A stretch of 64,000 nucleotides of DNA, taken from assembly GCF_003019035.1 (NCBI RefSeq), contig NZ_CP027447.1; one strand, written 5' to 3'. How positions within the stretch are numbered: the stretch's first letter is position 1; every line of letters begins with the position of its first letter. Positions 34,853 through 37,072 of this stretch are shown piece by piece. Under the pieces are notes generated by a model. That model made no database searches and had not been told where the DNA came from. It saw only the letters and a program-made list of their open reading frames with translations. A program made the translations under genes and the position numbers. This DNA comes from Escherichia coli (GTDB lineage: Bacteria > Pseudomonadota > Gammaproteobacteria > Enterobacterales > Enterobacteriaceae).

Positions 34853-35383
34853 GAGAGATATGAAGTCTGGACATAAACCTGAAGAAGGCATACGAGGTTG
34901 AAAATAGCGTTTAGGACAACCTGACTTAACCCCGTTCCGTCATGGTTATGCTGCTCTTCTGTAAATATCCTGGCATTACTAATGCCAGGATATTTAAATT
35001 GAAAAAGACAGGCATCCATTCCTGAAAACGGGTTCCCTTCCCGGTCATTGTCACTTCAGCTTTATACAGGCACTCTCTATCAGAATGCTGTTTATTACTG
35101 CCCAGAGTTTTGTTGGTATTCATCTACCTTTTTCTTCAGATAAAATAAAATCTCAATCAGATCGATATCCTGTTTGATTTGTTCACTCATAATATATCCA
35201 GAAAATAAAATCTGCCGCAGATAAATGAATTAATAGTCTGTATCAGGAATGTTCGGGTTAAATATCAGCAAAAAGCCAGCATCATGAATACTGGATATGA
35301 AGCATGAGAGTTACCTCAGTGTTTTATATAAGGATTCGGTCCTCATAGTAGAACGGTAACTCTCAATCTGATAGGTTCCTGAG

Positions 35384-37072
35384 TCAGTTCACATCACGAC
35401 TCATTTTTTTCGCTCTCACCGGCATCCCATTTGCCACATAATATCCCGCCGTGCTCCTCGGCAACGCATCCTTCCCGCGAATCATATCCGCCATTTTCTC
35501 GCCAATCATAATCGTCGTGGCGTTCAGATTGCCGGTGATAATCTGCGGCATAATTGACGCATCGACTACGCGTAATCCTTCCAGCCCGTGCACGCGGCCT
35601 TCGCCATCCACAACGGACATCTCGTCGTACCCCATTTTGCACGTACCGCATGGGTGGAAGGCGGTTTCGGCGTGATTACGCACAAACTCATCGAGCTGCT
35701 CATCCGTCTGGCATTCGACACCGGGGCTGATTTCGCGGCCACGATACTGATCCAGCGCCGGTTGATGCATGATCTCCCGGGTGATGCGAATTGCGTCGCG
35801 GAACTCCTGCCAGTCCTGCTCGTGCGACATGTAGTTAAACAGAATTCCCGGATGCTGGTGCGGGTCGCGGGATTTAATCCGCACATGCCCACGGCTTGGC
35901 GAGCGCATCGATCCGACGTGGCACTGGAAGCCGTGCTCTTTCACTGCGTTCGAGCCGTTATAGTTAATCGCCACTGGCAGGAAATGGTACTGAATATTCG
36001 GCCACGCAAATTCCTCACGGCTGCGAATAAATCCGCCTGCTTCAAAGTGGTTGCTGGCACCAACGCCGGTGCCGCCAAACAGCCACTCCGCACCGATTTT
36101 CGGCTGATTCCACCACTGCAGGGCAGGGTAGAGGGAAACCGGTTCTTTGCACTCATATTGCAGATACATCTCCAGGTGATCCTGAAGATTTTCGCCGACG
36201 CCAGGTAATTCATGCACCAGCGGAATATCAAACTCCGCCAGCAGTTCAGCGTTGCCGACGCCGGAGCGTTGCAGGATCTGCGGTGAAGCAATCGCGCCTG
36301 CACATAACAGCACTTCTTTATTCGCCGCCGCGCGGGTCGGAATGGTGCTGTCGCCTTCCAGCCACTCGACGCCCACCGCGCGTTTGCCGTCAAAAATGAT
36401 GTGATCGGTCATGGCGTGAGTACGAATAGTCAGGTTAGGGCGCGATTTGGCCTGATCGAGATAGCCACGCGCGGTGCTGGCGCGACGGCCATGCGGCGTG
36501 ACGGTGCGATCCATCGGGCCAAAACCTTCTTGCTGATAGCCGTTGAGATCGTCCGTGCGCGGGTAGCCCGCCTGCACGCCCGCTTCAATCATCGCTTCAA
36601 ACAGCGGATTGACGCCGGGTTTGGAGGTGGTGACGCTCACCGGGCCATCACCGCCGTGGTAGTCGTTCTCGCCCACATCGCGAGTCTCGGCCTTGCGGTA
36701 GTAGGGCAGGCAGTCGAGATAACTCCAGTTCTCCAGACCAGGTTCTTGTGCCCAGTTATCGAGATCCAGCGCATTGCCACGGATGTAGCACATACCATTG
36801 ATCAGCGATGAACCGCCCAGACCTTTGCCGCGTCCGCACTCCATGCGACGGTTGTTCATAAACGGTTCCGGTTCCGTCTCATAGGCCCAGTTATAGCGTT
36901 TACCCTGTAACGGGAACGCCAGCGCGGCGGGCATCTGGGTGCGGAAGTCAAAGCGATAGTCCGGGCCGCCTGCTTCAAGCAGCAGCACGGTTATGTTCGG
37001 ATCTTCAGTCAGACGGGTAGCGAGGACGTTGCCGGCTGAGCCGGCACCAATAATGATGTAGTCAAATTGCAA
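35384..37072 (-). CDS. betA: Choline dehydrogenase BetA
   Basis: GMC oxidoreductase with FAD motif [11 protein letters not shown]; start taken as the TTG (LQFDYIIIG) with AGGAGG upstream, coordinate +/-1 nt. Confidence 0.85.

Follow-up and report, generated by a model that had tools for sequence, protein, structure and literature searches.

An A6/A7 homopolymer length polymorphism at the 3' end of Escherichia coli betA

The bet locus and the end of betA

The analysed window, a 64-kb stretch of Escherichia coli DNA, contains betA (choline dehydrogenase, 562 aa) on the minus strand at 35384..37072. The assignment was based on the open reading frame, its Pfam domains and the RefSeq naming in near-identical loci. 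Two domains were recognized in the window BetA, GMC_oxred_N (PF00732, E=6.9e-63) over residues 3-300 and GMC_oxred_C (PF05199, E=1.7e-40) over residues 393-524, and the protein was 99% identical to the representative of the E. coli BetA cluster. From its orthology to K-12 BetA we infer that it probably converts choline to betaine aldehyde. The gene is located directly downstream of betB, and the adjacent reading frames of 491 aa, 201 aa and 677 aa correspond to betB, betI and, divergently on the plus strand, betT, respectively; the betB-betA pair is named so by RefSeq in near-identical loci. Translation of betA starts at a TTG codon (37072-37070), with an AGGAGG ribosome-binding site a few bases upstream. 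The TTG start was common to all 19 E. coli sequences compared, K-12 included, and was therefore rejected as a peculiarity of the strain, being a conserved non-ATG start. A 635-aa E. coli protein (P0089), named 'choline dehydrogenase', carried TetR-type domains (PF00440, PF13977) ahead of the GMC domains. Its architecture resembles a fusion of BetI to BetA, which has perhaps originated from a deletion that took out betB.

Around the 3' end of betA the plus strand reads ctcaTTTTTTTcgctc, and the positions 35400-35412 read ctcaTTTTTTTcg. The T7 run is placed exactly at 35404-35410, corresponding to an A7 homopolymer tract on the coding minus strand, which encodes Lys555 and Lys556 and extends one base into the Met557 codon. 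The coding strand ends with GTG AGA GCG AAA AAA ATG AGT CGT GAT GTG AAC TGA, where the TGA at 35384..35386 is the stop of the A7 (562-aa) allele; TAA is found at the same position in some strains. Both the T7 run and the extended end of BetA, as claimed in the original prediction, were read directly from the sequence and its 562-aa reading frame. Another TGA is positioned directly 3' of the tract (35401..35403, minus strand), out of frame in A7, and this is the stop used by the A6 alleles of K-12 type, 556 aa. Removal of one A brings it into frame, so that the protein terminates after RAKK with 556 aa, exactly as in K-12 (GCG AAA AAA TGA). The length of 556 aa, which the original prediction gave for K-12 BetA, agreed with the K-12 gene of 1671 nt carrying A6. 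The six extra codons, ATG AGT CGT GAT GTG AAC (35387..35404, minus strand), encode MSRDVN and are translated in A7 alleles only; a variant of this six-residue tail, MSRDLN, was found in O157:H7, ST2747 and EC12.

The predicted protein ends, each followed by a stop, were RAKNES for A5, RAKK for A6, RAKK+MSRDVN for A7, RAKKNES for A8 and RAKKK for A9, and every one of the three frames closes at most seven codons past the run. The 64-kb window contained 18 homopolymer runs of at least 7 nt. A 7-nt A/T run is thus unremarkable as such, and what is notable is its position, two codons before an alternative stop.

Tract length across Escherichia coli genomes

A 501-nt query around the tract was run on 5,426 complete E. 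coli genomes; 5,206 gave a match, and for the other 220 (~4%) the betA 3' region went unmatched. Ten of the matches in the E. coli collection were plasmid-borne; in the K-12 strain DHB4 (locus L002, NZ_CP014271.1) the F' plasmid F128 also carries the bet region, and this copy explains some of them. The tract length was read out by a 181-nt query across the tract, where the span of the record minus the span of the query shows a 1-nt indel. The read-out was checked against the annotated CDS length in 12 fetched loci and was correct in all 12. The first evenly spaced sample, 60 of 5,149 matching complete E. coli records, comprised 12 A7 and 48 A6, and the second sample, 60 likewise evenly spaced records ranked against a K-12 query, comprised 10 A7 and 50 A6. 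The pooled frequency of A7 was 22 out of 120 (~18%), the remainder being A6 (~82%); these values represent 120 sampled records from a collection skewed to clinical and outbreak clones. No A5, A8 or other tract lengths were observed in any of the samples.

The tract site is polymorphic in E. coli, with either A6 or A7. All 19 fetched E. coli loci (L001-L018, L020) showed the same correspondence, betA being annotated at 1689 nt wherever the tract was A7 and at 1671 nt wherever it was A6, and A6 versus A7 was the sole length difference in these alleles. Carriers of A7 include O157:H7, O55:H7, O103:H2, SMS-3-5, ST2747 and 2009C-3133, and carriers of A6 include K-12, BL21 derivatives, ST131, Nissle (EcN) and O145:H28. 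The sampled O157:H7 records were all A7, and the sampled K-12 and BL21 derivatives were all A6. Tract length is stable inside lineages and fixed per lineage. Fifteen distinct E. coli/Shigella members of the protein cluster were named, eight of 562 aa and seven of 556 aa, and the representative of the E. coli BetA cluster in a large protein collection was itself 562 aa long. Both alleles are common and already catalogued in RefSeq. The original prediction had left a choice between a real length variant and a homopolymer sequencing error. The former was borne out by the occurrence of A7 with 562 aa and of A6 with 556 aa, each in many independent RefSeq-annotated E. coli genomes. Comparison with betA of other strains, proposed there as a check, revealed the same A7 and extended C-terminus, the outcome that had been named there as refuting; this assembly is therefore not alone in having the tract.

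K-12 BetA (556 aa, WP_001159094.1) was like the window in gene, place after betB, TTG start and domains, and the flank GCG-A(n)-TGAGTCGTGATGTGAAC was the same. It was unlike the window in having A6 and a stop after RAKK, as well as 10 further amino-acid differences before the tail. The 562-aa BetA of O157:H7 (WP_001159114.1), SMS-3-5 (WP_001159141.1) and ECCNB12-2 (WP_023141610.1) shared the A7, the frame and the stop position with the window. SMS-3-5 and ECCNB12-2 showed no difference from the window in the 501 nt that surround the tract, while O157:H7 BetA differed in its MSRDLN tail and in two synonymous changes just upstream (CCA GTA). Further away, SMS-3-5 betA and the window had 28 nucleotide differences within nt 1-1370 of the gene.

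The betA of the window was found to be a recombination mosaic. The CDS nt 1-1370 were nearly identical to isolate AJ5, with 10 differences. A patch of ~190 nt at CDS nt ~1371-1560 (window ~35513-35702) was identical to SMS-3-5/ECCNB12-2 and differed from AJ5 at 20 sites (~10%). Over the whole gene, the differences between the window and AJ5 were mostly synonymous (23 of 28 differing codons). Matches of at least 99% to the window over the 501 nt, the patch included, were found in 77 of ~5,200 records.

Origin of the two alleles

We consider it very probable that the site is a natural 1-nt A6/A7 polymorphism at the 3' end of betA, slippage-born, lineage-fixed and probably neutral, and that the window holds a true A7 allele. 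The difference would most likely have arisen by slippage during replication in the mononucleotide run, and each allele would then have become fixed within lineages. In an A6 allele the TGA comes right after Lys556 and gives 556 aa, as in K-12; in an A7 allele the shifted frame runs through six more codons (MSRDVN or MSRDLN) before the next stop and gives 562 aa, as in the window. High variability of a short poly(A) run is known from Listeria, where the A7 tract of inlA varied at an estimated frequency ~1000x the average point-mutation frequency (Orsi et al., 2010, PMC2831843). In prokaryotic simple sequence repeats, per-locus indel variability is higher at protein termini, and repeat indels at the C-terminus face relaxed constraint and yield alternative C-termini (Lin and Kussell, 2012, PMC3315296).

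In betA trees of 19 sequences, constructed with the tract removed, A6 and A7 alleles were interleaved, requiring at least five Fitch steps; trees from the full gene, the last 600 nt or the last 300 nt required at least five changes each. All four combinations of tract allele and SNP were present, both for the SNP at +19 nt and for the SNP at -29 nt. K-12 (A6) and O103:H2 (A7) were identical in the 300 nt upstream of the tract and different downstream. The interleaving fits recurrent replication slippage, recombination, or both. As betA is mosaic, recombination breakpoints near the tract would contribute some share of the homoplasy. The tract had also been suspected to be slippage-prone, and this agrees with the homoplasy across lineages, that is, on evolutionary timescales, but not with the situation within lineages, where the length is stable.

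The alleles could alternatively go back to a single ancient indel, A6 and A7 being afterwards shuffled among betA backgrounds by homologous recombination, in which case the tract would not be especially slippage-prone. We regard this as possible, though rather unlikely. The mosaic structure of betA (nt 1-1370 like AJ5, nt 1371-1560 like SMS-3-5) and the stability of the tract inside lineages are consistent with such shuffling, and the shared upstream and differing downstream sequences of K-12 and O103:H2 are what a breakpoint in the tract or close to it would produce. However, the four combinations of tract allele and SNP occur within 19 and 29 nt, so that several breakpoints would be needed in a very short interval, and at least five changes remain even on trees of the last 300 nt alone. 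In addition, mononucleotide runs of 6-7 nt are known as indel hotspots (PMC2831843, PMC3315296).

An outgroup for the E. coli alleles was sought with a codon-degenerate DNA pattern for Y[YF]VANGxPVRxKK in 100,044 species-representative genomes, among which no Escherichia species matched. The sole match was a distant Enterobacterales MAG with the end YYVANGAPVRQKK followed by a stop. The listing of cluster members, consulted for the same reason, contained E. coli and Shigella names only. The pattern scan returned no Escherichia genome although all E. coli alleles seen fit the pattern. The E. coli representative genome may be without the bet locus, since ~4% of complete E. coli genomes have no betA 3' match.

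The protein tail, the allele of the window and the downstream flank

Conservation of BetA in Enterobacterales runs to PRSTAxYYVAxxxPVR and then ends. After PVR the tail varies in both length and sequence across Enterobacterales, with totals of 554-574 aa. BetA of Enterobacter/Klebsiella type ends at once with PVRR at 554 aa, and the tails of other relatives extend past PVR by as many as a dozen or so unrelated and mainly basic residues. The tract codes for K555-K556, just past this last conserved motif and after the end of GMC_oxred_C at residue 524. The domain limits and the variable tails of other species put it outside the conserved fold. No counterpart of MSRDVN was found outside E. coli among the Enterobacterales BetA relatives compared. 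Since all three frames end at most seven codons past the run, no slippage event at the tract would be expected to harm the enzyme body. Judged from sequence, the difference between the A6 and A7 tails is most likely neutral or nearly so, because the residues lie past the last conserved motif and every frame closes so soon. A literature search on betA and homopolymers gave nothing specific, and no enzyme or fitness comparison of the 556- and 562-aa isoforms was found. No consequence of the tract length for osmoprotection biology is evident, nor any functional meaning of what is an ordinary, already catalogued polymorphism.

Two known systems were compared with the betA tract. In the C-terminal frameshift polymorphisms described by Lin and Kussell (2012, PMC3315296), an indel in a run at the 3' end leads to a nearby alternative stop and a new short C-terminus, like in betA. 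Both features of a repeat-associated C-terminal length polymorphism were found here, an indel in a mononucleotide run of which both lengths are natural, and an alternative stop nearby. Variants of this class are tolerated and leave nearly the whole protein unaffected, and betA is a typical instance without substantive difference. The 5' A6/A7 tract of Listeria inlA (Orsi et al., 2010, PMC2831843) resembles betA in that both of its poly(A) alleles are natural and a slipped-strand mechanism is presumed. Unlike in betA, the inlA tract is located at nt 6, where A6 abolishes the protein and acts as an ON/OFF switch, whereas the length change in betA alters the 6-aa tail only, and no intra-lineage switching was seen.

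A functional isoform switch, where tract length or transcriptional or translational slippage yields two BetA C-termini under selection, appears very improbable. Both alleles persist at appreciable frequency, and the +1-frame tail is open to the same stop position in A6 strains too, as such a switch would allow, but an open frame of six codons is expected by chance ~75% of the time. With the tract occupying the final two codons ahead of the A6 stop, and not the 5' end of the gene, a change in its length would have no ON/OFF effect; close relatives show no tract variation, MSRDVN is without counterpart outside E. coli, and the tail length is unconstrained in the family. Efficient or programmed slippage of RNA polymerase usually needs runs of 9 or more A/T, and the run of 6-7 nt is below the length for efficient slippage. 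We give just as little credence to a slow evolutionary toggle or a low-level transcriptional-slippage site, by which the tail would alter membrane association, stability or activity of BetA and selection would keep the two alleles in different lineages. If this were true, O157:H7 and phylogroup-F-like strains would stand against K-12 and B2, for example.

Two related categories were considered and rejected. A phase-variable contingency locus does not agree with a tract at codons 555-557 of 562, past both GMC_oxred_C and PVR. Tract variation among close isolates, by which such a locus is recognized, was absent, the best 60 haplotype matches being all A7. A programmed site of transcriptional slippage or frameshifting was rejected because the run is only 6-7 nt and MSRDVN is not conserved outside E. 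coli.

The possibility of a sequencing error was addressed by shortening the run in the window's 501-nt haplotype to A6 and searching the resulting synthetic sequence against complete E. coli genomes. No exact match to the synthetic A6 haplotype was found among the complete E. coli genomes searched. Each of the best 60 records for this query showed 99.8% identity over a span of 501 nt, meaning A7 and an identical haplotype. These 60 records originated from many laboratories, hosts and years, with the SMS-3-5 reference NC_010498.1 among them, and the PGAP annotation of betA in genomes of the same haplotype was intact, with 1689 nt, 562 aa and normal WP_ accessions. That the true tract is A6 here and the 562-aa frame an artefact of homopolymer sequencing or assembly, the other alternative of the original prediction, is extremely improbable: long-read and pyrosequencing assemblies commonly miscount homopolymers and ~82% of the sampled E. 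coli carry A6, but at least 60 independent complete genome assemblies have the haplotype with A7, none has it with A6, and PGAP calls the proteins intact. By comparison of haplotypes, the window thus appears to carry the true A7 allele of its lineage, of the SMS-3-5-like haplotype, rather than a sequencing error. For annotation, the 556-aa and 562-aa BetA of E. coli should each be taken as genuine, the latter being no frameshift, sequencing error or pseudogene; 'polishing' or correcting the tract to the K-12 length should be avoided. The locus is a small clean example of a homopolymer at a 3' end giving rise to harmless C-terminal length variants.

A terminator-like hairpin of 8 pairs, followed by the T-run CTTTTTGCTG, was recognized by consensus match at 35276..35294 on the minus strand, ~90 nt beyond the betA stop codon. 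The bet transcript may end at this hairpin, which would be unaffected by tract length. Further downstream of betA, ykgH has an internal deletion of 566 bp compared with K-12, where ykgH is intact with 669 nt; the junction is at ~35128-35133 within the intergenic stretch 34853-35383. In the loci of SMS-3-5 and ECCNB12-2, which align to the window gap-free, PGAP labels the short remnant 'incomplete hypothetical protein'. In O157:H7, O145:H28 and several others (loci L003, L008, L010, L012-L014 and L018), homology to the window stops ~88 nt past the betA stop (~35296). No ykgH or ykgG is annotated in the fetched stretch of those loci, and the next annotated gene is ipbA (tyrosine invertase, also fimX/hbiF). 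The 3' flank of betA thus appears, from these alignments, to be a variable junction between genome types.
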